Source: an uncultured Desulfospira sp.
Lineage (GTDB): Bacteria; Desulfobacterota; Desulfobacteria; Desulfobacterales; Desulfobacteraceae
Reading direction: 5' to 3'
Assembly (NCBI GenBank): GCA_963663165.1
Contig: OY760175.1
Coordinates: 1,856,001 to 1,920,000 of the forward strand
DNA length: 64,000 nucleotides
Under the pieces are notes generated by a model. That model did not search any database. It worked only from the letters and a program-made list of their open reading frames with translations, and was not told where the DNA came from. Position numbers and translations under genes: made by a program. Of the stretch, positions 1 through 53,843 are shown one piece after another (position 1 is the first letter of the stretch; every line of letters begins with the position of its first letter).

Positions 1-1494
1 AACGGTAACCTGCCCGTCAGCTTTAACCGCTTTGGCTTCAGCCGCATCATCCTGGCTGATATAAATTTCGGCACCGCTGGTGGTGACCTCAAGTGTGGGG
101 GAGGTCTCCTCGGTGCCGATGGTAAGGGCCCCGTCCACGGAAATCCCCCTGCCGCCATCGCCGTCGTGGGCCAGGCTTATGGTGCCGCCGGCAATATCAA
201 AATTTCCATCCGCTTTGATGCATACGCCATGGTAGGCGTCTGCCTCTCCGTCTTCATTAGTGTATGTACCCCCGCCACCGGAGGATGTAATGGTCAGTTC
301 TCCGGAGGATATCACCACGTCTCCGTCACTGGAAATCCCCCGGCTGGCCTCACCGTCTGTGGTGATGGTGACAACGGCACCGTCAAGCAAAAACTCATCT
401 TCAGGCTTTATGGCCGTGCAATAGGACGGGTCATAATACCCCATGTCTTCGTCTACCGCCTCGAGAACCGCATCCCCATGGGTTTCAATGGTGATGGACC
501 CGCCGCTGAGCAGCATGGTTTCGGCTTTCAATCCCTTGGACTGGTCACCGTTCACGAGCAGGTCAACGGTGCCGCCGGAAATGGTGAGGTCGCCGTCACA
601 TTTAACAGCGTCCCGGTCGTCATCATCTATTTCTACTGCCAGATCGCCCCCTGATATCCGGACCGGCCCGTCCCCGGCATCAACACCGTCGCTGCCGGCA
701 ATCACATCGACCATTCCGCCGGACTGGTAATACCCGTCATTGGTGTGGATGCCGTCCTTAGCAGAACCGGTGACATAAATGGTGCCGCCAATAACTTCAA
801 TATAATCGTCACTGGCAAGCCCGTGTTGGTCGTCTCCCTGGCCGTTGATGGTCAGACTGCCGTCCCCGGAAAAAATCAATTCCGCTTCGCTGAAAAAGGC
901 GGCTTTTTGATCCTCATCATCGGGCGCTTCTGCGTATTCTTCCCCGTCGGTTAACACGGATTCCGTATCCTGGCCAAGTTCCACTGAAATGGTTTTACCG
1001 GACTGGATATTGATGGCCGGCCCCTGGGTGCTGGTGATGGTGACACCATTGAGCTGAAGGGTCACATCATCCTCTGAATAAAGTTTAAACGTTCCGTCGC
1101 CGGTTGCGCCGGACAGGGCAAATATAATTCCCGGAACCCCGGCAACAGATGTCACGGTGACATAAGCGCCGCTGGCCGATATATCCACACCGGCATCTTC
1201 CCAGGGGTTGCCTATGGTCACGGTTGAATCGCCGTAAATGATGGTAACCGGGGTTTGAGCGCAATCCGGACAGGACTGACGGCCAAAGTGCGCGGCAAGC
1301 AGTTCAAGCCGGTCTGCCTGTCCGTCAAAATCCTCCAGAAAAGTGGTCAGATCCAGGCCGTCCACATCCCCGTCCATAGTCAAATCTCCGTAGCAGGCCA
1401 AATTCTCAGCCGCCTGCAACGGACAGGACAAAATGCATACAACGCAGCAGATGGCTGCAAATGGCAATATCATATACGGTCTTAAATTTTTCAT
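1..1494 (-). CDS. Secreted carbohydrate-binding domain protein (DUF4353/Cthe_2159-like beta-helix), runs off the left edge
   Basis: Manual translation from ATG 1494: MKNLRPYMILPFAAICCVVC signal-like N-terminus, dockerin-like GDLTMDGDVDGLDL, then repeated GG-x-I/DG motifs (HGLASDDYIEVIGG, KDGIHTNDG). Not in the ORF track because the stop lies outside the window. Confidence 0.8.
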   Translation of the reverse strand, partial: MKNLRPYMILPFAAICCVVCILSCPLQAAENLACYGDLTMDGDVDGLDLTTFLEDFDGQADRLELLAAHFGRQSCPDCAQTPVTIIYGDSTVTIGNPWEDAGVDISASGAYVTVTSVAGVPGIIFALSGATGDGTFKLYSEDDVTLQLNGVTITSTQGPAINIQSGKTISVELGQDTESVLTDGEEYAEAPDDEDQKAAFFSEAELIFSGDGSLTINGQGDDQHGLASDDYIEVIGGTIYVTGSAKDGIHTNDGYYQSGGMVDVIAGSDGVDAGDGPVRISGGDLAVEIDDDDRDAVKCDGDLTISGGTVDLLVNGDQSKGLKAETMLLSGGSITIETHGDAVLEAVDEDMGYYDPSYCTAIKPEDEFLLDGAVVTITTDGEASRGISSDGDVVISSGELTITSSGGGGTYTNEDGEADAYHGVCIKADGNFDIAGGTISLAHDGDGGRGISVDGALTIGTEETSPTLEVTTSGAEIYISQDDAAEAKAVKADGQVTV

Positions 1495-1948
1495 GGTACT
1501 CCCCTGTGTCTGCTTATGTTTTTTCTATTTTTTCAACCCCTTGCCTTTTATAATAAAACCACCTGATGAAATGGCGCAGGCCCGGCGACCTTAAGACAGA
1601 ACTCTATCTTTTAACCTGTAAAAACACAACTCTAACCGTTTTCTACCCACTTTCAAACATGAGCCCTAAATGAAACTATTCGGCCCGGATATTCACCAAT
1701 TTTTTGTCCTCTTATATTAAAGCACTGGCCGGGAAGCTGCCGTGACTTTACCGCGACCGGACAGCGACGCAGGTGACGGGGAAAAAAAGCTTCGATAAAG
1801 AGCAATAAATTTTTTTAATTTTTAAAAATTTACACAACAAACCATCTAACCGGTTGTAATGATGTTTTTTTCTTCATAATCATACAAGAAACCATAAAAC
1901 ATCCGGATTAGAGATAATGGCTGACAATCCTCTGTACAATATGGTATG

Positions 1949-2072
1949 CAATGCCATTAACTTAAGAAATTTTGCATAGCGCGCAGGGGTTATAAAATGG
2001 GCGCCAACGGCGCTTCACCCTCTTGTCTCTTGTTTCCAGTTTCTTGTATTAACGCTTAAGTTAATGACATTG
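1949..2072. mobile_element. 124-bp MITE with IS4-type ends (copy 1)
   Basis: TIR CAATG(C/T)CATTAACTTAAG; 10-bp target duplication ATATGGTATG. Confidence 0.9.
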
Positions 2073-2294
2073 ATATGGTATGGATGATCCGGGAGGGGGA
2101 TTTTTCTCATTCGTCGGGTTAAGAGAATTATATCCTGCCCGTTTATCAAAAAATTGTTCTAAAAGCGGTATTGCCCCGGCAATTTTATATGAAAGTCTCA
2201 CTAACAGCGTGACAAGACTTTCATTATTCGTTGTGGGCGATACTTGGTTGGATAACCAAGGCGGCCCGTGGCCGTTATAAAAAGGAACTGACCT

Positions 2295-3245
2295 ATGGAA
2301 ATGAATAGTGTAAAGCACATTGGAATCATCGGCACCGGTATGATGGCCTCCAGCATAGCGGTGTTAACCACCGGCCACGGCTATCGGACAACCCTGCTGG
2401 CCAGATCACCCCAGAGGGCAGACAGCTGCAAGGCTCAGATTGACAACTTTTACACCGAAATTGCCCGGCAGAACCTTATCACTGAAAATCAGGTGGATAT
2501 CTGCAAGGGTTACCTGAACTTTGCTTTGGGCTATGATGGGCTTTCGGATGTTGACGTCTTTTATGAATGTGTTGCCGAGGTCATAGAGACAAAACACGAG
2601 GTCTACAGGCAGATAGAAGAACACTGCCCGGCCGTTAAAGCGATCTGTTCCGTCAGTTCTTCCATCGTTGTTGACGATCTGGTCAAAGGCATTGATAAGT
2701 ACAAAGACCGGGTGGTGGTCGCCCACCCCTTTAATCCCCCCCACATGGTCCCCTTTTTCGAGCTGGCAAAGGGAACAGATACGGCCGCCGGTGTTATCGA
2801 GTTCGCGGCCGAATTGCTTAAGGCCCTGGACCGCAAACCAGTGATATTGAAAAAAGGGATTCCCGGGTTTATCGGGAACCGGCTCCAGTTCGCTTTGTGG
2901 AGAGAATGCCTCCATCTGGTGGAAAATGGTATTGCTGACCCGGAAGACATTGATACCTGCCTTCAGTACAGTTTCTGCCCGAGATATACGTCCATTGGAA
3001 TTTTTGAACACTTTGACAACGGCGGCATGCAGCTCAACTACAACGTGGTCAAGACATTGTTCCCGCTGTTAAGCGACCAGAAGGAGGTCCCCAAAGCCAT
3101 TACCGACAAGATTGCCACCGGCGACATGGGGCAAAAAACCGGAAAGGGGTTTTATGACTGGCGAAATGTTGATATGGACGCCTACAATGAGCGGGTCAAC
3201 GCGCCCTATTGGAAATTTTTCAACTGGGATTATCCCAAAAAATAG
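2295..3245 (+). CDS. 3-hydroxyacyl-CoA dehydrogenase family protein
   Basis: GIIGTGMM Rossmann motif, HPFNPPHM, PGFIGNRLQ, GQKTGKGFY. Confidence 0.93.
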   Translation: MEMNSVKHIGIIGTGMMASSIAVLTTGHGYRTTLLARSPQRADSCKAQIDNFYTEIARQNLITENQVDICKGYLNFALGYDGLSDVDVFYECVAEVIETKHEVYRQIEEHCPAVKAICSVSSSIVVDDLVKGIDKYKDRVVVAHPFNPPHMVPFFELAKGTDTAAGVIEFAAELLKALDRKPVILKKGIPGFIGNRLQFALWRECLHLVENGIADPEDIDTCLQYSFCPRYTSIGIFEHFDNGGMQLNYNVVKTLFPLLSDQKEVPKAITDKIATGDMGQKTGKGFYDWRNVDMDAYNERVNAPYWKFFNWDYPKK

Positions 3246-3281
3246 CTTTATATTTTGCTAAGTTTTCAGCATTAGCTGAAT

Positions 3282-3405
3282 CAATGCCATTAACTTAAGA
3301 AATTTGGCATAACGCGCAGGGGTTATAAAATGGGCGCCAACGGCGCTTCACCCTCTTGTCTCTTGTTTCCAGTTTCTTGTATTAACGCTTAAGTTAATGA
3401 CATTG
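3282..3405. mobile_element. 124-bp MITE with IS4-type ends (copy 2)
   Basis: Near-identical to copy 1; own 10-bp target duplication TTAGCTGAAT. Confidence 0.9.
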
Positions 3406-3455
3406 TTAGCTGAATAGTTACTATATGTTAAGGAAAATCAAAAAAGGAAACTACA

Positions 3456-3890
3456 ATGGATACCAGTAAATTGATTGTTCAGGATCTCAAAGACCCCAAT
3501 ATGGGAAGCCCCGAATTTCAGGCCATGTACAAAAAATTCTCCAACCGGATCCTCTGGATTGACGATAATGTGGTGGAAGGTGCGTTTCAAATGAACACCG
3601 CATGGTACTTTGATGTCCCCGAAAAAGACCCGGTTTTCGAAGAGCATGCCCATGACCATGGTGAATTGATCGGTTTTTTCGGCAGCAATCCTGATGACCC
3701 ATATGATCTGGGCGCCCGGATGGAAGCCACCCTCAACGGCGATAAGTATGAACTCACCCGGACGTCCATGATTTTTGTTCCGGCCAACATGCCCCATATG
3801 CCCTTGAGAATTTTACAGGTTGACCGGCCGGTGTTTCACTTTTCCATCGTAATGAACGGTGAGTACTCCGGCGGGAGCGCTTATAAATGA
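3456..3890 (+). CDS. Cupin-like hypothetical protein
   Basis: EHAHDHGELIGF and FVPANMPHMP cupin-type motifs; RBS AGGA. Confidence 0.75.
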   Translation: MDTSKLIVQDLKDPNMGSPEFQAMYKKFSNRILWIDDNVVEGAFQMNTAWYFDVPEKDPVFEEHAHDHGELIGFFGSNPDDPYDLGARMEATLNGDKYELTRTSMIFVPANMPHMPLRILQVDRPVFHFSIVMNGEYSGGSAYK

Positions 3891-4002
3891 ATAGGCCCTG
3901 TTTTTCCGGCTCTTATTTGGGTTGACAAAAAGTAAGCTCATATCTTATAAAATAATTTCTTATACTAGTAAAGAATGCCAACAGGGAATAGGAGGAAGTC
4001 GC

Positions 4003-4464
4003 ATGAGTTGTTCTTTCAGTTATGGCCCGCAAAGAGACGCATATGAAATGAAAAATTCTTTCAGAACCCGGCGACCGCCGCAAAGCAACAGCCAGTTTCC
4101 AACTTATATCCGGGTCAACCGAGTAAGTTCCTCATTCTATTTATGTGGTGACGGTGAAAACCACCTTCTTGATCTTTTGCTAAGGAAATCCAGTGCAATC
4201 ATTGAGGCAAAATTGCCCATCGACCTGTTGGTCGTCCGAAACGGCCCTCTTGTTATCGCACAGGTGATGGAATCCTCTTACAGAATTCAAGGTGCCCGTG
4301 GTGTTGGCATTTTCCACCCAATGGGCAGGGAAAGCATCACAGGGGCATCCCTGTATTTCGCACTTCAAAAAGATATTTTTCCCGAGCTCCGGCACATCAA
4401 TCCGCCGCCGGTCCCGCCCCGGTTGGTCAGTTTATTGGGCCATAACAAAAGCTTTTTTAGTTGA
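4003..4464 (+). CDS. Hypothetical protein
   Basis: GGAGG RBS before ATG 4003, followed by a hairpin; no recognisable motif. Confidence 0.45.
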   Translation: MSCSFSYGPQRDAYEMKNSFRTRRPPQSNSQFPTYIRVNRVSSSFYLCGDGENHLLDLLLRKSSAIIEAKLPIDLLVVRNGPLVIAQVMESSYRIQGARGVGIFHPMGRESITGASLYFALQKDIFPELRHINPPPVPPRLVSLLGHNKSFFS

Positions 4465-36266: not shown

Positions 36267-37434
36267 GGGATGTGGTAAAATTAAAACCCACAATTCATTC
36301 CTCATAGCATGGAATATCAACAGCCCATTTTTCAATCCCTGGAATCCGAATAATTTTGTTTTCTATATTATTCACGGCGGACTTGACCAAACGTACCCCT
36401 GTCGGGTAAACACCTTTGATTAATTTGACGACAGGATTTTCTCCTTTCCATGTCATTGTTCGACATAGACCGAGAACCTTTTCAATTTTGTTCAGCAATT
36501 CGCCTTTCCAATGATTTTCCAAAACACCCCAAACTCGCTCTATTGGGTTGTATTTACTGTGGTACGGGGGATAGTACACCAAACTAATATTTACAAATGC
36601 TGATTTGGCAAAGTCCACGAGGCGACTAATGAATTGGCTCCTTCGGCTACTATTTTCCGGCCCATTATCAAGATTGATCACCAGTGTATGTGGGGCGAAT
36701 CTTGCGTTCAAAGAAGGCCAGAGTGATTCCAGCGCATCAATCATGAAATCAGAGGTGATGTTGCTTTCAGTGAAGTACATATAATTTTCATCCAGAGCAG
36801 GTATGTTGATACCGAAAAGTTTCAAAAGGGAATCGGGTTTAAAATCATGGTCCGCCGCTTTAAGATTGCAACGACTATATCCGCCTCGGGAATAAGGCCC
36901 TATTTTAATAGTGGCTTTTGCGTCCATTGAGATACGTAAAACGCCATCTGTTTCATCGGCTAGTTGGTTTGTCCTATGCACATATTCAAAAATGATGTCT
37001 GTTTCAGGAATTTTTTTTTACCTTGGCTTTGGCGACCTTCTTCAGTTTAAAACCCAATTTATTCATTATGGTGGATAGAGTCCGTACTGTTGGCATATTC
37101 TCAGGGTCATATCCCATGTCGTCTGCTAAGATTCAAAAAATGTAACGCGGATACGCCAAATCAGCTACAAAATAATATAACGGGAAGATATCCCGCCGCT
37201 TTACCCCGCCAATAAAATATATAAACCTTACCTCGCTTACCCCGCAGTTATCCCGCCGCGAATTTTTTCGAAAAAAGCTTTGCCAATCTATTTGGAAGAA
37301 GTCAATACTTCCTTGATAAAAAAGGCTCGAAGCTGCAACTTCGAGCCTTCAATGTAGACATCCGAGTAGGTTACGGAAGCCACACCACCGTTTTTATCTA
37401 ACCACGGCTTCCGTAATTTAGCAAGAGCGGAAGC

Positions 37435-46966: not shown

Positions 46967-48104
46967 GGATATTATCCAAAACTATGGCAGCCAGCAAACA
47001 TACCCTTCTACAAGTTAAATCAATACATTGTTATAAGTCGGATAGTTTTTTCAACATTGTTTACCTGGAAAGAAATAAGGTATTTTTTAGCTCGACCTCT
47101 CGCTTCACTGAACAAATCAACAACCGTATTAAACTTAATACATTCATAATCTTTATTGTAATCCATATTGAATATATAATTGGTGTTTATAGTATTTCGA
47201 ATGATGTCCCTAAACTGATTAAAACTTAAACTATCAAGTCCAATTATTTGCAAAGCTCCAAGTTTGTTTTCCAATAAATATAAATATTTTTTTTCATCAA
47301 TTTGTACATCAAAATCTTTAATAAGGGCTGGTTGCCTTGTAACTGTGTTAAGAGAAAATATCTGGTCATCGTTATCAAACTCAGAATACCTTCTTTGAAT
47401 TTTAAAAGTTAGAAAGCTGTGATATGCGAACTCCTTTATGTTTCTAATTTTGTATCCATATTTTTCATAATCAATGAAAGAATAGTTAATTGGACTTGAA
47501 TCGTCTATTTCTTCATCTTCGTTGACCGGTAAAATAGCAATTTTTTTATAAAATAAGCATTTCTGTGCTATTGATGAAGCAACTATATCCTTGAGATGGC
47601 AACTATAAGTTATATCGGTATATCCTACGTAGAAAGGCATTTTTTTTAAGCCGCTATCTATATCGGCAAGTTTCGTAGAAGAAATATTATTTATAACTAT
47701 AACGAAATATTGAGAACTGTTTCTATAGTTCAGAGGGGCATTGAAATTTATACTTCGTAGCATTATTTCTTTTACAGCTCTCTGTCCATCTCGATCTTTG
47801 GGGCCGATGAGATCCCCATAAAACATCGCCGTTTTTTCTATACCAACAAGAAGTGGTATAAATCCTCTAAGGGATGTGGTAAAATTAAAACCCACAATTC
47901 ATTCCTCATAGCATGGAATATCAACAGCCCATTTTTCAATCCCTGGAATCCGAATAATTTTGTTTTCTATATTATTCACGGCGGACTTGACCAAACGTAC
48001 CCCTGTCGGGTAAACACCTTTGATTAATGAGAGCAATCACGATAATTCATGGACAACGTTTCATGGTAAATAAGGGCTTTCCCGGAGGCCAAGAGAGCCC
48101 GATT

Positions 48105-48893
48105 TTAACTGATAATTTTTTCAGCTTTTTGTAATGTCCTGATCAGATACTGTGTTTTTTTTCGTTCATCCGCATGATTAATCCAATCCTGCCTTTCATT
48201 GATAATGCGATTGTAAATTTCCATTCGTGAAAAACCTCTTCTATAGAGGGCCAGAGCATATGCAAAATCAGTGGCAGATTCGTCACCCTTATCATAGAGG
48301 GAGCGGGAAATATTACCGTTATGGCACACTCCCCCCCGGGGTTGATGGGAAAAGACTTCTTGAGGTCGGGAGGATAATTCTATTTCAGGGACAATAGCCT
48401 GGCATTTCCAGTCCACCCATAATAGCTTTGCCAAAGGGTATTGTCCTGAAGGCGTTCTATGTTTTGCTTTTCTGTTCCTGAACCCGGGGCATCTGCCCCA
48501 CCTGTTTTTCGGGTCGGCGCCGGGATCACTGTGCATGTTTTCCAACCAATACTTTTTTTCGGGAAGGCTTAACGGACGGTCACTGTGAATCCAAATTTGA
48601 TAATTGCCGGGAGATGTTTCCATAACCATCCTGCCTGGTTTAAAGCGGTTTGATATGGATTGATGATGCCGGATAAGCAGGTCAATGTTTAAATCGTCGG
48701 CAAGAAAATAATAAGGCTCAATAACAGGATCAGGTCTGATCAGGATGTGCCTTCCTCCGGCATTTTCAGCTTTAAGATAAGGGATGTTTTTACAAGAGGG
48801 GAGAACGGGCCACCGGCCCTTAATTTCATCAAGAACTGCCAGGCTGAAGCGGTGCTTAAAATAATTGCCGATTTTCCATAGTATTTTTTCCAT
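48105..48893 (-). CDS. RepB-like DNA primase (RSF1010 RepB' type)
   Basis: LADDL, METSPGNYQIW, DPGA, RCPGFRNRK, C-terminal DESATDF. Confidence 0.82.
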   Translation of the reverse strand: MEKILWKIGNYFKHRFSLAVLDEIKGRWPVLPSCKNIPYLKAENAGGRHILIRPDPVIEPYYFLADDLNIDLLIRHHQSISNRFKPGRMVMETSPGNYQIWIHSDRPLSLPEKKYWLENMHSDPGADPKNRWGRCPGFRNRKAKHRTPSGQYPLAKLLWVDWKCQAIVPEIELSSRPQEVFSHQPRGGVCHNGNISRSLYDKGDESATDFAYALALYRRGFSRMEIYNRIINERQDWINHADERKKTQYLIRTLQKAEKIIS

Positions 48894-48930
48894 TGAGGCA
48901 GGCCCGGACCTTTAGAGTCCGGGCGTACGT

Positions 48931-49113
48931 TTAAAACGGCTCGTGTTCTTTATGACGGTTCTTTTCCGTGAGCCTTTGTTTCTGGAATTGCCTGAAGGCC
49001 CGATATTCCATATTCAAGTTTTCAAGTCCGGCAAGGACCATATCCAGGATAAAATGTTCCAATTCCTGTGTAATTTCTTCCAGTTTCATGTCCGGATCAT
49101 CATAAATACCCAT
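48931..49113 (-). CDS. Small hypothetical protein (T2)
   Basis: RBS AGGAG; operonic position. Confidence 0.65.
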   Translation of the reverse strand: MGIYDDPDMKLEEITQELEHFILDMVLAGLENLNMEYRAFRQFQKQRLTEKNRHKEHEPF

Positions 49114-49122
49114 ATTGTTCTC

Positions 49123-49950
49123 CTATGATTTTTTATTGGGCGGCTGTCTGGAATAGACTTCCATAAAAAGTTTTTCGTCCAATTGATTGAGTTCTTTCTC
49201 AATCCCCGCAGCCAGCAGGTCTGCGGCCATACTGTTAAGAACCCGCAGGTTGCCGGCGCAATGGTCTGCAAGGGTCCTGATCAGAGTTTTCGTCATTAAG
49301 TGCGGGGCGCCGGCCTGGTTCAGGCTGTGATCCATGTAATCCAGCAGGTCATCCCGGACATAGGGAAGCAGCGTCAACCGGAACTGCATCCGGCTTCCCA
49401 GCGATACCAGGGATCTTGATCTGAACCGTTCCGGGAGCCGGTCATCGCCGCAAATCACGGTGGTCAACAGGTTTTGGGAGTCAAAGTCCGCGCTGTTCAA
49501 CAAACGCAGTTCATTTAAGCATCCGGTCAGCATCTCCTGGGCTTCATCTATGAGCAGGATGGGCCGGAACAAGGTGGTTTTTACATGATGCCTCCAGCGC
49601 TCCCGAAGATCCTTGAACCCGCCATACCGGTTGGCAGGGCTTAAATTGACACCAAACAAAACTCCCATTTCCCGGTAAAAGTCTCCGACACTGCTTTGGG
49701 GACGTTCCATTACCCCGACAACTACCTCGTCAAGTTTACCGAACTTTTGGGCAATCATCTGCAACGCCTTGGATTTGCCAAGGCCAGGGTCCCCGCTGAT
49801 CAAAGCAAAGCCCCCGTTCAGGGTCATATTCTCAAGACGAAAAATAAAACTGTTCATCAATGGCGGATGCCATAAAGCCTCCACGGGGATATTGGACAAA
49901 AAAGGATTCCATTTAAGGCCGTAATAAGCCAGAAGCTGTTTGTTGTTCAT
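49123..49950 (-). CDS. ExeA-type AAA ATPase (T2)
   Basis: YGLKWNPF, GDPGLGKS, LLIDEAQ. Confidence 0.9.
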   Translation of the reverse strand: MNNKQLLAYYGLKWNPFLSNIPVEALWHPPLMNSFIFRLENMTLNGGFALISGDPGLGKSKALQMIAQKFGKLDEVVVGVMERPQSSVGDFYREMGVLFGVNLSPANRYGGFKDLRERWRHHVKTTLFRPILLIDEAQEMLTGCLNELRLLNSADFDSQNLLTTVICGDDRLPERFRSRSLVSLGSRMQFRLTLLPYVRDDLLDYMDHSLNQAGAPHLMTKTLIRTLADHCAGNLRVLNSMAADLLAAGIEKELNQLDEKLFMEVYSRQPPNKKS

Positions 49951-51392
49951 GATTCTCCTTTGGGCAGATAGGCTGGGGGCATGCCGCTTTGGGCATACTC
50001 GGCCATCAGTTTTCTTAATAATGCAGGCTCGGATTCTTTCAATGTTTCATCCGGTAGAATGGTATGTTCAGGTCTCGACTTGATCTTTCGTTTTCCTGAA
50101 GCATTTTTGATTTTGTCTTGGGGGTAGATCGGCGCAATCTGTTTGCCGGTTCTCTGGTCCATGAGCCAGGCCATGGATTTATCCCAATTGGCAAAGCAGA
50201 CATGTAACCGAGGGATATGGTGAAACCGGGAAGGGATCTCAAATCTTACCCCGTTGATGGACACGGTACCGTCAGACTTGCGCTGATTTCTGACTTCGCA
50301 AACTGTAAAGGCGAAACGTAATTGTTCTTCATCCGGTGCCGGCCGGGAAACATCTTTGCCTTCAAGCATGCGTTGAACAGGAGATGTGCCGATGTCACTA
50401 TGCCTGGTTTTGTTATATTCCATCTCGACCCAAGCCTGACTGCGGTGATTGAGATATTCCAGTGTCAGAGGGTCCACCCGGGTCAGCATGGCCATCAATC
50501 TGCCTTCAAGGGTGCCCCAAAAGGCTTCCTGCTTACCGTTTTGATAAGGGCTGTAGGGCAATGTCGTTTCATGAAGTATCCCTGTTTTCTTAAGCCCGTT
50601 GCAAAACTCATGGGAGGTCATGGCAGATCCGTTGTCCGTCATCAGTGCCCTGGGAAGCCCCCTTTTGAAAAAGGCCTGGGTCAATCCATGAATCAAATCC
50701 TGGGTGGTTTCTCCTGAATACCATTGGATGTGGCAGCACAGGCGGGAGTGGTCGTCAAGAATACATAAGGCTTTGGGCGTATACCAGTTACCGTTGTTAT
50801 CCACCACCCGCAGACTGCCTTCATGAAAATCCAGATGCCACAGGCTGTGAACACATTCTGCTTCATATCCACGGATCTCATGGCTTTCGAACCGCGTTGC
50901 GGCAGTTTTCATGCCCGCTGTCTGTTTTTTCTTGGCTGAGGGTTTCCTGGTCCACCCTCTTTCGACCATCCGCCGCCGGACACTGGCATAGGATGGTATC
51001 GATACTGAATTGGCTTTTTCTTGAAGTTCTGCTGCGAAATTATCTGCGTGCAGTTTGTAGCTCCAGTTCGGATAGGTCCGGTATTGTCTGCCCAGCATCC
51101 GGATCAGTTCAGGCGTGAATACAATTGAACCGCCATAGTCTGAACGAACTTTCCGTCCTAAAGCAATGATGGGGTCCTGGGCATTTTTTGCCTTGTAATA
51201 CCAGCTTTCAATAGTTGAAAAATGAAATACCGTCGATTCGTTCGTGATGGGATGGGTGTAAATCTGATTGGAAAGCTTTTCCAGTTCCTTACGCAGCTCA
51301 CCCTTGGCCGGCGGATTTGCCAGCAAACCACCAACGACTGAGAAGCGAAACAAAGCCCATTTATCAACCGGACTTTGGTTTTTACTGTTCAT
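49947..51392 (-). CDS. IS481/Mu-like DDE transposase (T2)
   Basis: WHLDFH, LDDHSR, TDNGSA, NGKQE; Mu-like C-terminal DGTVSINGVRFEIP. Confidence 0.9.
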   Translation of the reverse strand: MNSKNQSPVDKWALFRFSVVGGLLANPPAKGELRKELEKLSNQIYTHPITNESTVFHFSTIESWYYKAKNAQDPIIALGRKVRSDYGGSIVFTPELIRMLGRQYRTYPNWSYKLHADNFAAELQEKANSVSIPSYASVRRRMVERGWTRKPSAKKKQTAGMKTAATRFESHEIRGYEAECVHSLWHLDFHEGSLRVVDNNGNWYTPKALCILDDHSRLCCHIQWYSGETTQDLIHGLTQAFFKRGLPRALMTDNGSAMTSHEFCNGLKKTGILHETTLPYSPYQNGKQEAFWGTLEGRLMAMLTRVDPLTLEYLNHRSQAWVEMEYNKTRHSDIGTSPVQRMLEGKDVSRPAPDEEQLRFAFTVCEVRNQRKSDGTVSINGVRFEIPSRFHHIPRLHVCFANWDKSMAWLMDQRTGKQIAPIYPQDKIKNASGKRKIKSRPEHTILPDETLKESEPALLRKLMAEYAQSGMPPAYLPKGES

Positions 51393-51507
51393 AGGCCGGG
51401 GTCCTTTCAATTTTAAGTTAAAATTTTCAGCGGAATGCTGATAAAAATCCCGGCCCCTTTGATAGAACAGTTGATCGCCCAAGGCCACGCCCATCTTCTG
51501 CGTGAGA

Positions 51508-52095
51508 TTACCCGGCCCTTATTTTTTGTGATATTTCATTGCCTTGAGACAAGAATGACAAACAGGAGATCAACGTTTCTTTGATGGATGCCTGTTGATG
51601 CAGATAGAAGTTGACCAAACTTGCCGGAAGACTGTCATTTTTCACGCTTGCAGGCACTCGGCCCCGGATTTTCTTCCATTGAGCGCTTGTTGGAAATATT
51701 TCTTTAAACAAACCGACCCAGCGTCTAAGGGTGTTGCGGGAGATACCGATTGTTTCAGCAAACCTGGACATCGTGATACCTACAGATTGGTTCTGCCAGT
51801 CGGACACAATCGTCAGAATGGCCGCATACCAGTAAATGTTTTTACCAAGGAAACGGCAGGTTGGCGGGATCAAACGCCGTCGGCAGCCTTCCCTTCCGCA
51901 GCATAAACTGAATTGTAAAAAACATTCTTCAGACAACCCTTCAGGCTCCCCCCTGGGTTTGCGCAGATAATTGGCATAATACAACGGTCCCTGGCAGTGG
52001 GGGCACTTCATCTGTCTATAACGTTCGGCTGTTGCCAGATCTATTTTGTATAGATTCCAAAAAAGACTTTCGCTTTTTAGAACTTCTGATAGCAT
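51508..52095 (-). CDS. Zinc-ribbon/HTH protein (T2)
   Basis: CPHC...CCGREGCRRR; HTH ISRNTLRRW. Confidence 0.75.
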   Translation of the reverse strand: MLSEVLKSESLFWNLYKIDLATAERYRQMKCPHCQGPLYYANYLRKPRGEPEGLSEECFLQFSLCCGREGCRRRLIPPTCRFLGKNIYWYAAILTIVSDWQNQSVGITMSRFAETIGISRNTLRRWVGLFKEIFPTSAQWKKIRGRVPASVKNDSLPASLVNFYLHQQASIKETLISCLSFLSQGNEISQKIRAG

Positions 52096-53843
52096 ATCTC
52101 CTGCCCTGTTATTGGGTGGGGAGGCAGGAGTTTCACGATTATTTGCGAGATAAACAAGGGAACTTCTGCCTCAAACCTGACATATCTTGCAAATTATCTT
52201 CAATTTTTCCATGATTTTCTGTGACCATTCTCAATTAATTTGACGACAGGATTTTCTCCTTTCCATGTCATTGTTCGACATAGACCGAGAACCTTTTCAA
52301 TTTTGTTCAGCAATTCGCCTTTCCAATGATTTTCCAAAACACCCCAAACTCGCTCTATTGGGTTGTATTTACTGTGGTACGGGGGATAGTACACCAAACT
52401 AATATTTACAAATGCTGATTTGGCAAAGTCCACGAGGCGACTAATGAATTGGCTCCTTCGGCTACTATTTTCCGGCCCATTATCAAGATTGATCACCAGT
52501 GTATGTGGGGCGAATCTTGCGTTCAAAGAAGGCCAGAGTGATTCCAGCGCATCAATCATGAAATCAGAGGTGATGTTGCTTTCAGTGAAGTACATATAAT
52601 TTTCATCCAGAGCAGGTATGTTGATACCGAAAAGTTTCAAAAGGGAATCGGGTTTAAAATCATGGTCCGCCGCTTTAAGATTGCAACGACTATATCCGCC
52701 TCGGGAATAAGGCCCTATTTTAATAGTGGCTTTTGCGTCCATTGAGATACGTAAAACGCCATCTGTTTCATCGGCTAGTTGGTTTGTCCTATGCACATAT
52801 TCAAAAATGATGTCTGTTTCAGGAATTTTTTTTTTACCTTGGCTTTGGCGACCTTCTTCAGTTTAAAACCCAATTTATTCATTATGGTGGATAGAGTCCG
52901 TACTGTTGGCATATTCTCAGGGTCATATCCCATGTCGTCAACTAATCGACGGAATACTTCATTCGCAGATATTGGGGAATATAAATTCTGGGTACGGAAT
53001 GTAGGATCAGTCTGACATATAGGGTTTACAATACGAGTTATGTCCTCTTTTAAATTCGGAAAATGTTCTAAACACGATTTCCGGCCTCGTCCGGAAAAAT
53101 TATCAACACAGGTAACTCCGCTTTCTATTTCCCGTCGCCCTTTGATTATTGTTTTCCGATCCCAACCCAGTTCTCTTTCAGCCTTTAGTTGTCCGCCGTG
53201 CCCCATAAGGGAGACAACGCGTGCCATGAATTGGCGCCGTTCATGGCCTTTTAATTTGCTTCGAGTGGTATTCAGAAAATCCTTTAGTGGTGGCGTTAAT
53301 TCCGATATAGTTTTGGGTAAATTGTGCTTAGAATGATCAAACATGGTCCTCCTGTATTTTTTATGTAATCTTCCATGTTGACCATAAACTATCGATTCCA
53401 TGTTGTCTATAGAAATTAGAATTCAGACTATGGAATTGTGGATATTAATTTTTCTGAGGCCCTAAATATTGCAGAACCATAAATAGTATTTTCAATCCTC
53501 ATCGAATCGAAAATAAAACAAACTTCCATTTTGTCTGTTTGTGGGGTAAGTACATTCTTCAGTTTTTCATATGGCACACCAATTTCTTTTAGCCTTTCAA
53601 CCATTGGCCTAAAAACACCCTTTATTTCATTTGAAATCTGGTCATTATCAAGTTTCAAATGATTCTTTAGCATATCCCAAATTATCAAGTTGCGTGTATC
53701 GAATGTGTATACTTTCATTCAACCTCATATAGTCGAATAGGTGATTTTATTCATATTTATAATAAAAACTTGATTGTTATCCAACAGTTATTCTATTGGA
53801 GAACGCCAATATTTTATATTTCGATTTCTTCGGGTCATTCAAA

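Follow-up and report, generated by a model that had tools for sequence, protein, structure and literature searches.

Recruitment of DNA synthesis by copying DDE transposons is known in detail only for phage Mu, where host restart proteins are engaged and the element relies on the restart primosome of its host. Elements of the IS21 family probably transpose by a copy-out/paste-in route, and IS481 and IS3 represent single-enzyme insertion sequences of about 1-1.5 kb having neither an ATPase nor a primase. Here, we address a transposon, hereafter T2, which occupies positions 48028..52233 in a 64,000-nucleotide stretch (the window) of contig OY760175.1 from an uncultured Desulfospira sp. and encodes, apart from a transposase and an ATPase, a primase related to RepB' of plasmid RSF1010. 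The genes of T2 all lie on the minus strand and follow from the right end in the order Zn-ribbon/helix-turn-helix (Zn/HTH) protein, DDE transposase, ATPase, 60-aa open reading frame (ORF), and RepB-type primase. Such an operon had been outlined in a sequence-only reading of this DNA, which proposed that the transposon primes its own copying step; the gene assignment is upheld here by ORFs and domain matches, and the observations gathered below lean, with reservations, towards self-priming as well.

T2 measures 4206 bp from the TG at 48028 to the CA at 52233 and is flanked by two copies of ATTAA (48023..48027 on the left and 52234..52238 on the right) replaced by a single ATTAA in uninterrupted targets. 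Its termini form an imperfect 28-bp inverted repeat, TGAGAnnnnTCACnnnAAnTCATGGAnAA, with 19/28 positions being identical when the left, primase-proximal end (48028..48055, plus strand) is aligned to the reverse complement of the right, transposase-proximal one (52206..52233, minus strand); the automated repeat search of the window did not list these imperfect repeats, and they were found by direct comparison of the ends. DNA search over the host genome, represented by one 6.74-Mb contig, revealed 11 copies, including nine full ones (exact bases 1-4206), one lying across the contig ends, and one interrupted copy split into three pieces by other insertions. TG and CA ends are preserved in all of them. 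Three copies match that of the window throughout, another five are mutually identical, 112 positions setting them apart from it, and one with 74 differences resembles a recombinant of the two variants; the five ORFs remain open in 9/9 full copies. Flanking duplications of the full copies span 5 bp in four cases and 6 bp in two, and the other three have only 3-4 matching flank bases. The copy in the window interrupts an insertion sequence of the ISAzo13 type within its transposase gene (Pfam DDE_Tnp_ISAZ013), and the 80-nt empty target composed of both flanks and a single ATTAA is matched exactly at 20 other sites of the genome. Furthermore, contigs (Logan) of all four public runs (4/4) join position 48022 to 52234, skipping 4211 bases (4206 + 5). 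Owing to these exact empty sites and contig joins, the evidence for the ATTAA duplication is much stronger than a chance direct repeat would give. The precise ends and the duplication claimed from the sequence alone are therefore confirmed by exact copies, empty sites and contig joins, and T2 is a real, recently active transposon with exact ends.

The same genome harbors a non-autonomous 373-bp element in three identical copies, one at G000:C1:4409221-4409593 on the plus strand and two on the minus strand ending at 5266944 and 2727359, with 5-bp duplications TCAGA, ATCTG, and ACAAG. Its termini are near-perfect 26-bp repeats, TGAGAGCAATCACGATATTTGATGGA, very like the ends of T2, and it was probably moved in trans by a transposase of the window-like lineage designated below as A-type. 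Taken together, T2-type duplications vary from 3 to 6 bp, the length of 5 bp being found in 4/9 copies of T2 and in 3/3 copies of the small element.

The primase of T2 (48105..48893, minus strand, 262 aa) belongs to the RepB' type of the archaeo-eukaryotic superfamily and is built of a catalytic domain plus a C-terminal helix bundle. Both parts score above the Pfam cut-offs, namely RepB_primase PF16793 with 56.7 bits against 24.3 (E 3.8e-15) and RepB_primase_C PF22448 with 32 bits against 26.1 (E 1.1e-07), and the protein aligns to the RSF1010 RepB' structures 3H20/3H25 with E 1e-11 and about 25% identity. According to the RepB' study, residues D77, D78, and D134 catalyze nucleotidyl transfer, almost no primer synthesis is left in the R145A mutant, W50 assists in opening of the ssiA hairpin, and extension of the first dinucleotide requires R285 (PMC8567376). 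A 2018 survey of archaeo-eukaryotic superfamily primases describes Gln in motif II as typical of RepB'-like enzymes and counts 11 members in the RepB' family, comprising plasmid and relaxase-fusion forms (PMC5862659). In the T2 protein, D66, D67, D123, and R134 stand opposite D77, D78, D134, and R145 of RepB', and all four are invariant in 62/62 distinct full-length relatives taken from the loci surveyed below. The position of the W50 wedge is occupied by Tyr, i.e. remains aromatic, in 61/62 relatives, the motif II Gln (Q99) is kept in 61/62, and helix-bundle R252, corresponding to R285 of RepB', in 58/62. The AlphaFold model obtained from a 26-row alignment is poor (mean pLDDT 62, pTM 0.34), and RepB' 3H20 is its sole PDB fold match at E <= 0.001. 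Domain search and structure prediction, both suggested in the sequence-only reading, thus place the two RepB' domains above their cut-offs and return 3H20, the latter from a poor model; the ETSPGNYQ motif quoted there is present as described, and the loss of catalytic residues, which it regarded as fatal for the idea, is seen in none of the 62 relatives. Judged by residue conservation, the T2 primase is catalytically intact, every RepB' residue known to be required for primer synthesis being kept. No ORF of T2 matches the RepA helicase or the RepC initiator in Pfam or NCBIfam, and no oriV with paired ssiA/ssiB was found.

Protein search with the T2 primase gave 563 clusters at E <= 0.001 among 760 candidates, and the best 120 of the 563 are 53-100% identical to the query and reside mostly on contigs of about 1-5 kb. 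In the genome survey, with one genome taken per species, 81 stretches encode a relative of the primase, and 80 loci (L-numbers below), mostly from Desulfobacterales and Syntrophobacterales, were kept. The neighborhood of DDE transposase, ATPase, and primase proposed for such a survey proved recurrent: an rve transposase and/or an AAA_22 ATPase lies directly upstream on the same strand in 56/80 loci (tblastn). Pfam scans, covering 149 upstream ORFs out of 180 candidates (duplicates and already scanned ones dropped) together with 28 ORFs from other loci, add transposon context for L029 and L041 and for the IS21-like L043 and L059. The dominant layout comprises a small ORF (147-196 aa), an rve transposase (409-523 aa), an AAA_22 ATPase (268-282 aa), and the primase. 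Transposases fall into two lineages, A, which is window-like with 46-97% identity, and B, which is 24-35% identical to the window transposase and often carries HTH_32 and Mu-transpos_C. In the IS21-like units (L059:327-4238 and L043:861-4161), the primase and a ParB_N protein precede IstA in a tight operon, IstA being followed by IstB_IS21 in L059, and L043 ending at the contig edge.

Several loci of this set attract attention in their own right. A tyrosine recombinase trio is located directly upstream of the primase in L039:112-3807, and a similar trio in L055:1670-4496 simply interrupts the transposase gene of a primase-bearing transposon of the B type; the link of the primase with three-recombinase elements was dropped, one clean case (L039) being insufficient. 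The only resolvase among the loci scanned is a serine resolvase at L035:2379-2969, just upstream of the small ORF of a B-type element. Seven loci (L066, L068, L069, L016, L017, L039, and L075) are binned as Anaerolineae, Methanosarcinaceae, Herpetosiphon, Bacteroidales, and Flavobacteriaceae, and their elements are near-identical or closely related, the L066 primase being almost identical to that of L137 from the order of the window; either short repeat contigs were binned wrongly, or the elements have spread widely by horizontal transfer. The host genome itself contains, at G000:C1:5653317-5655379, a single distant pair of transposase and ATPase broadly of this kind, with about 33% and 27% identity to proteins of the B type and no primase match.

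The primase is still 50-57% identical to that of T2 where the transposase and the ATPase are only 22-35% identical to those of the window. In a quick maximum-likelihood tree of 57 distinct primases (SH-aLRT support, midpoint rooting for drawing only), transposon-borne primases form one clade (98%) apart from those of conjugative elements (99%), and most A-type primases are united in one clade (99%). Primases of L053 and L061, the transposases of which are A-type, are nested in a B-type primase clade (99%), and this placement implies at least one exchange of the primase between transposase lineages. By this tree, the primase has moved between at least two of these lineages.

How common the gene is among relatives of the transposase was assessed in a transposase-first sample of 301 genomes of the same order, which gave matches in 47 (own genome counted) and 40 fetched regions, 21 of them evaluable, i.e. 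either reaching 1 kb or more past the ATPase gene or having a primase seen. A RepB-type primase was encountered in 4/21 (2/8 A-type, 2/13 B-type or more distant). It is an accessory gene, not a core one. Terminal repeats of the primase-less A-type elements L124, L128, and L132 are like those of T2, and they therefore belong to the same family. The transposase family amounts to at least 7983 protein clusters at E <= 1e-30, and T2 is an active member of a very large TG..CA transposon family with a three-gene core; no name specific to this family turned up.

The position of the primase gene is not reserved for RepB-type enzymes. In L132, the ORF directly following the ATPase gene encodes 310 aa that combine a CHC2 zinc ribbon of the DnaG type with a Toprim domain, and a relative of this protein, 53% identical, occupies the same slot in L134. 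Scanning of metagenomes with an alignment of four DnaG-like proteins revealed 259 relatives, and 80 loci were kept. Where at least 1 kb was available upstream, an AAA_22-type ATPase was found in 52/56 loci and a transposase as well in 50/56; these transposases are mostly A-type, with 43-65% identity to that of the window, the exceptions being one of the B type and four of more distant kinds. A RepB-type primase is present in none of the 56 loci. An AAA_25 gene is situated between the ATPase and DnaG-like genes in 28/80 metagenome loci (among L167-L246), as exemplified by L189:3253-4299 and L189:4321-5319 for the AAA_25 and DnaG-like genes, respectively. AAA_25 is a RecA-fold family including plasmid RepA-type helicases; by domain content, the AAA_25 and DnaG-like genes resemble a helicase-primase pair of minimal size, housed in a transposon of 5 kb. 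The absence of the primase from most homologous elements, named in the sequence-only reading as a result that would speak against it, therefore holds in part, RepB-type genes being found in four of the 21 relatives and DnaG-like ones in two more. The low frequency of the RepB type is offset because L132 and L134 carry an unrelated DnaG-like gene in the same slot, and this gene is widespread in metagenomes.

Upstream of the primase gene, a hairpin is located at 48902..48924 on the minus strand, its 8-bp stem being formed by 48902-48909 and 48917-48924 around a 7-nt loop, as had been described from the sequence, and ends 8 nt before the primase ATG. The sole difference between genome variants in this stretch is at 48914, inside the loop. 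Folding of the 45 nt preceding the primase start gives z < -2 relative to dinucleotide shuffles in 29/57 distinct relatives, and the fold is a single hairpin of 8-14 pairs ending 5-15 nt before the start codon and built of about ten unrelated stem sequences. Per-sequence folding was used here instead of MAFFT consensus folding, which recovered only four pairs with the differing stems misaligned. By these folding statistics, the structure is real, conserved, and strand-specific. As a candidate intrinsic terminator it was rejected for T2, where no T run follows the hairpin; a T run does follow the hairpins of L053, L055, and L061. In the RepB' study, the ssiA site comprises a 6-nt tail and a 21-nt hairpin, with the start 5 nt beyond the hairpin (PMC8567376).

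The following scheme might accommodate these data. The core of the element, consisting of the Zn-ribbon/HTH protein, the rve DDE transposase, and the AAA_22 ATPase, resembles Tn552, Mu, or IS21, and T2 has gained a fourth module between the ATPase gene and the left end, originating from plasmid-type replication and including the primase, the 60-aa ORF, and the stem-loop. By analogy with the rve and AAA+ transposon families, the transposase would nick the element and join its 3' ends, and the ATPase would govern target capture. DNA synthesis would then be needed, either for copying of a one-strand circle (copy-out/paste-in) or for the lagging strand at a Mu-type strand-transfer fork, and the primase encoded by the element would prime the strand lacking a 3' end, thereby replacing or supplementing the host primosome. 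Being non-essential to the family, it would increase transposition or make it freer. None of the five ORFs of T2 encodes a resolvase, a relaxase, or transfer genes, and the lack of a resolvase together with matching flanks in 9/9 full copies indicates that new copies are simple insertions, which is consistent with copy-out/paste-in or with resolved replicative events. Since unrelated priming modules have been captured repeatedly at one position, we consider self-priming by the T2 primase during replicative or copy-out transposition to be the best reading and assign it a probability of roughly 0.55. The broader statement, that a DDE/AAA+ transposon family, encountered here mostly in genomes of sulfate reducers and in metagenome contigs, repeatedly took up primosome parts (RepB', DnaG-like, AAA_25) and gave rise to self-priming replicative transposons, is more tentative and in our estimate stays somewhat short of even odds.

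Several observations weigh against self-priming. The primase is absent in 17/21 evaluable relatives, 15 of the 17 being devoid of any primase-type gene, and the family therefore transposes without a primase. The 373-bp element implies that the ends alone appear to suffice in cis. T2 itself encodes no helicase or initiator, and no circle or tandem junction of the right end to the left one is present in the contigs of the four runs, a weak argument given that contigs drop rare forms. The hairpin is ambiguous, too. Relatives without it are mainly those in which the primase start abuts the ATPase stop, and several stems (L022, L023, L026, and L057) stay paired only thanks to G-T/G-U wobble on the sense strand. 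Because it is missing in many elements, keeps a fixed distance from the start, and shows sense-strand wobble, the hairpin may be read as an mRNA element no less readily than as an initiation site of the RepB' type. Of the original claim that the transposon primes its own copying step, the mobility of the element, the intactness of the primase, and the convergence on one slot thus speak in its favor, the accessory status of the gene and the ambiguous role of the hairpin against it.

Other ways of explaining the presence of a primase in T2 have to be balanced against this. The gene may be cargo for horizontal transfer, the enzyme helping a carrier plasmid or conjugative element to become established after single-strand entry, in the manner of plasmid primases working on incoming single-stranded DNA, and the transposon would then do no more than disseminate the gene. 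Such a role would fit the surroundings of the nearest non-transposon primases, which belong to eight Desulfosarcina loci (L072-L077, L085, and L088; about 45% identity) in a conjugative-element context, with an SSB gene just upstream and RadC, DUF932, ParA/ParB, and a type IV coupling protein nearby, as well as the position of a distant relative adjoining RepC (L091). Nevertheless, T2 occurs 11 times on the chromosome and lacks both a relaxase and transfer genes, transposon-borne primases make up a clade of their own that excludes those of conjugative elements, the primase gene is the only addition in minimal transposons of 4 kb built on three different scaffolds, and sister elements have an unrelated primase-type gene in the same slot, all of which renders the cargo explanation unlikely. 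One may also imagine that the excised element persists or is amplified as a small circle, with the primase as replication starter, T2 then being a transposon-plasmid hybrid. RepB' is indeed a plasmid replication primase acting at hairpin sites (PMC8567376), a conserved hairpin adjoins the primase gene, and DnaG-like and AAA_25 genes of sister elements would form a minimal primosome. Yet the lack of a helicase and an initiator in T2 and of a right-to-left end join in the contigs of the four runs tells against a circle. In run X1, depth is about 100 over T2 versus 12.5 over the single-copy flank, an excess of about 8-fold by the rough measure of contig depth, and its comparison with 11 genome copies gives no sign of extra episomal ones, so that a replicating circle seems quite improbable.

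Finally, the primase-like protein may not prime at all, serving as a DNA-binding regulator, as a helper binding target or ends, or in counter-defence, the hairpin in this case being its operator or an mRNA element governing its translation. The location of hairpins within 5-15 nt before the start codon and their sense-strand wobble pairing, as in mRNA elements, would agree with this, and so would the stretch separating the hairpin from the ATG, in which no ribosome-binding sequence is evident. On the other side stand the invariance of three catalytic Asp residues and the nucleotide-binding Arg over 62/62 relatives, the retention of the helix-bundle Arg, and the lack of a match to any PADLOC defence model; moreover, if the role had nothing to do with priming, it would be a strange coincidence that the slot also accommodates a primase-type protein of another, unrelated kind. 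We judge this explanation to be as doubtful as the circle. Self-priming of transposition remains the reading that we prefer.

The other genes of T2 complete the picture. The first one (51508..52095, minus strand) encodes a 195-aa protein with a Zn-ribbon and a helix-turn-helix, the cysteines of which (CxxC...CC...C) are kept in A-type relatives, B-type ones having theirs at the aligned positions. Its HTH matches in Pfam are marginal only, and the AlphaFold model (mean pLDDT 83.6) gave no PDB fold match at E <= 0.001. The window segment 52098-52130 in the leader of this gene contains an 8-bp stem, CTCCTGCC / GGCAGGAG, which includes the GGAG preceding the ATG and, judged by its position, could mask the ribosome-binding site when transcription reads through from outside, as happens in other insertion sequences. 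Promoter and terminator scanning yielded counts equal to those of shuffled sequence. The transposase gene (49947..51494, minus strand) has a longest ORF of 515 aa with an rve core (Pfam rve E 3.2e-13), the true start being likely the ATG at 51392 (481 aa), since relatives align only from about residue 25-35. The protein has the DD(35)E rve fold; over 14 diverse relatives, residues D287 and E323 do not vary, and D222 is placed inside a conserved LWxxD motif. PDB sequence search with the transposase returned retroviral integrase cores only, and nothing for the ATPase or the Zn/HTH protein. The AAA+ ATPase (49123..49950, minus strand, 275 aa) is of the AAA_22/ExeA-like type (Pfam AAA_22 E 1.1e-16) with the motifs GDPGLGKS and LLIDEAQE, and its gene start overlaps the transposase stop by four bases. 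Its top NCBIfam model, ExeA-like TIGR03015, is reached with 75 bits, far under the 324.5 cut-off, and neither IstB_IS21 (PF01695) nor TniB is matched. The 60-aa ORF (48931..49113, minus strand), open in all nine full copies, has relatives (tblastn, 32-96% identity) between the ATPase and primase genes in 12 loci, including L013-L020, L022, L025, and L123, and is missing in L021, L023, and L024; it has no Pfam, NCBIfam, or PADLOC match. None of the five T2 proteins reaches a PADLOC defence model above noise.

As to the ISAzo13-type insertion sequence hosting T2 (window 52239-53401 and 47899-48022), it is present in about 21 genome copies, and two further insertion sites within the window, near 36384 and 60261, are uninterrupted. 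Its transposase is encoded by two overlapping ORFs, 52775-53401 and 52200-52796, the latter continued at 47899-48036, which might point to a programmed frameshift.

If self-priming is true, T2 and its relatives would represent a bacterial counterpart of self-synthesizing transposons, able to begin copying with no need for the restart machinery of the host, and would naturally connect transposons with small plasmids of the strand-displacement type. Natural variants having no priming gene, RepB', a DnaG-like protein, or a primase with a helicase would form a comparative series for understanding how priming limits transposition. The known roles of the small RepB' family would be widened, suggesting how plasmid replication genes and transposons swap parts, and compact, possibly host-independent transposition modules would become available for poorly tractable anaerobes.

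The statement of the sequence-only reading that no standard insertion sequence family has this layout is in line with everything compared so far. Best NCBIfam models for the transposase are IS481 (106 bits, cut-off 224) and IS3 (73 bits, cut-off 160), the score against the IS21 model is 38 bits at a cut-off of 160, and source names of its relatives are only generic ("transposase", "putative transposase", "InsO family"). In the literature searched, no DDE transposon encoding a primase of its own was found described, an entry in ISfinder or TnCentral being possible; PMC9679502 lists a DDE integrase beside an ExeA family protein and does not classify them.

Set beside the features of Tn552 from Staphylococcus (transposase p480 and ATP-binding p271) and of the Mu/Tn7/Tn5053 group, T2 has the same TG..CA ends, short duplications mostly of 5 bp, and an rve-fold transposase followed by a separate P-loop/AAA+ protein, whose function in T2 is assigned by analogy. 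Mu-transpos_C of that group is found in B-type and IS21-like relatives of T2 and remained undetected by Pfam in the window transposase. Unlike the group, T2 has no resolvase, TnsA-like nuclease, or TniQ match, its ATPase is AAA_22 rather than TniB, and it possesses a small Zn-ribbon/HTH first gene and its own primase. With IS21 (IstA and IstB), T2 shares the combination of a DDE enzyme with an ATPase, TG..CA ends, and variable short duplications, but differs from it by AAA_22 in place of IstB_IS21, by the additional Zn/HTH and primase genes, and by the IS21 model score far below the cut-off. Similarity to IS481 and IS3 is confined to the transposase core, for which they are the best, although far sub-threshold, NCBIfam matches, T2 being a five-ORF element. 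Like casposons and Polintons, which are self-synthesizing, T2 supplies its own enzyme of DNA synthesis; those elements of 8-20 kb use protein-primed family B polymerases with Cas1 or retroviral-type integrases, whereas T2 has only a primase within 4.2 kb. With RepB' of the IncQ plasmid RSF1010, the T2 primase has in common the two domains, catalytic D/D/D/R, the motif II Gln, an aromatic wedge, the helix-bundle Arg, and a hairpin of similar size adjoining the gene, and it is distinguished by identity of only about 25%, by the lack of RepA, RepC, and oriV with ssiA/ssiB, and by its location inside a DDE transposon. T2 is, accordingly, a Tn552/Mu/IS21-like transposon equipped with a primosome module.

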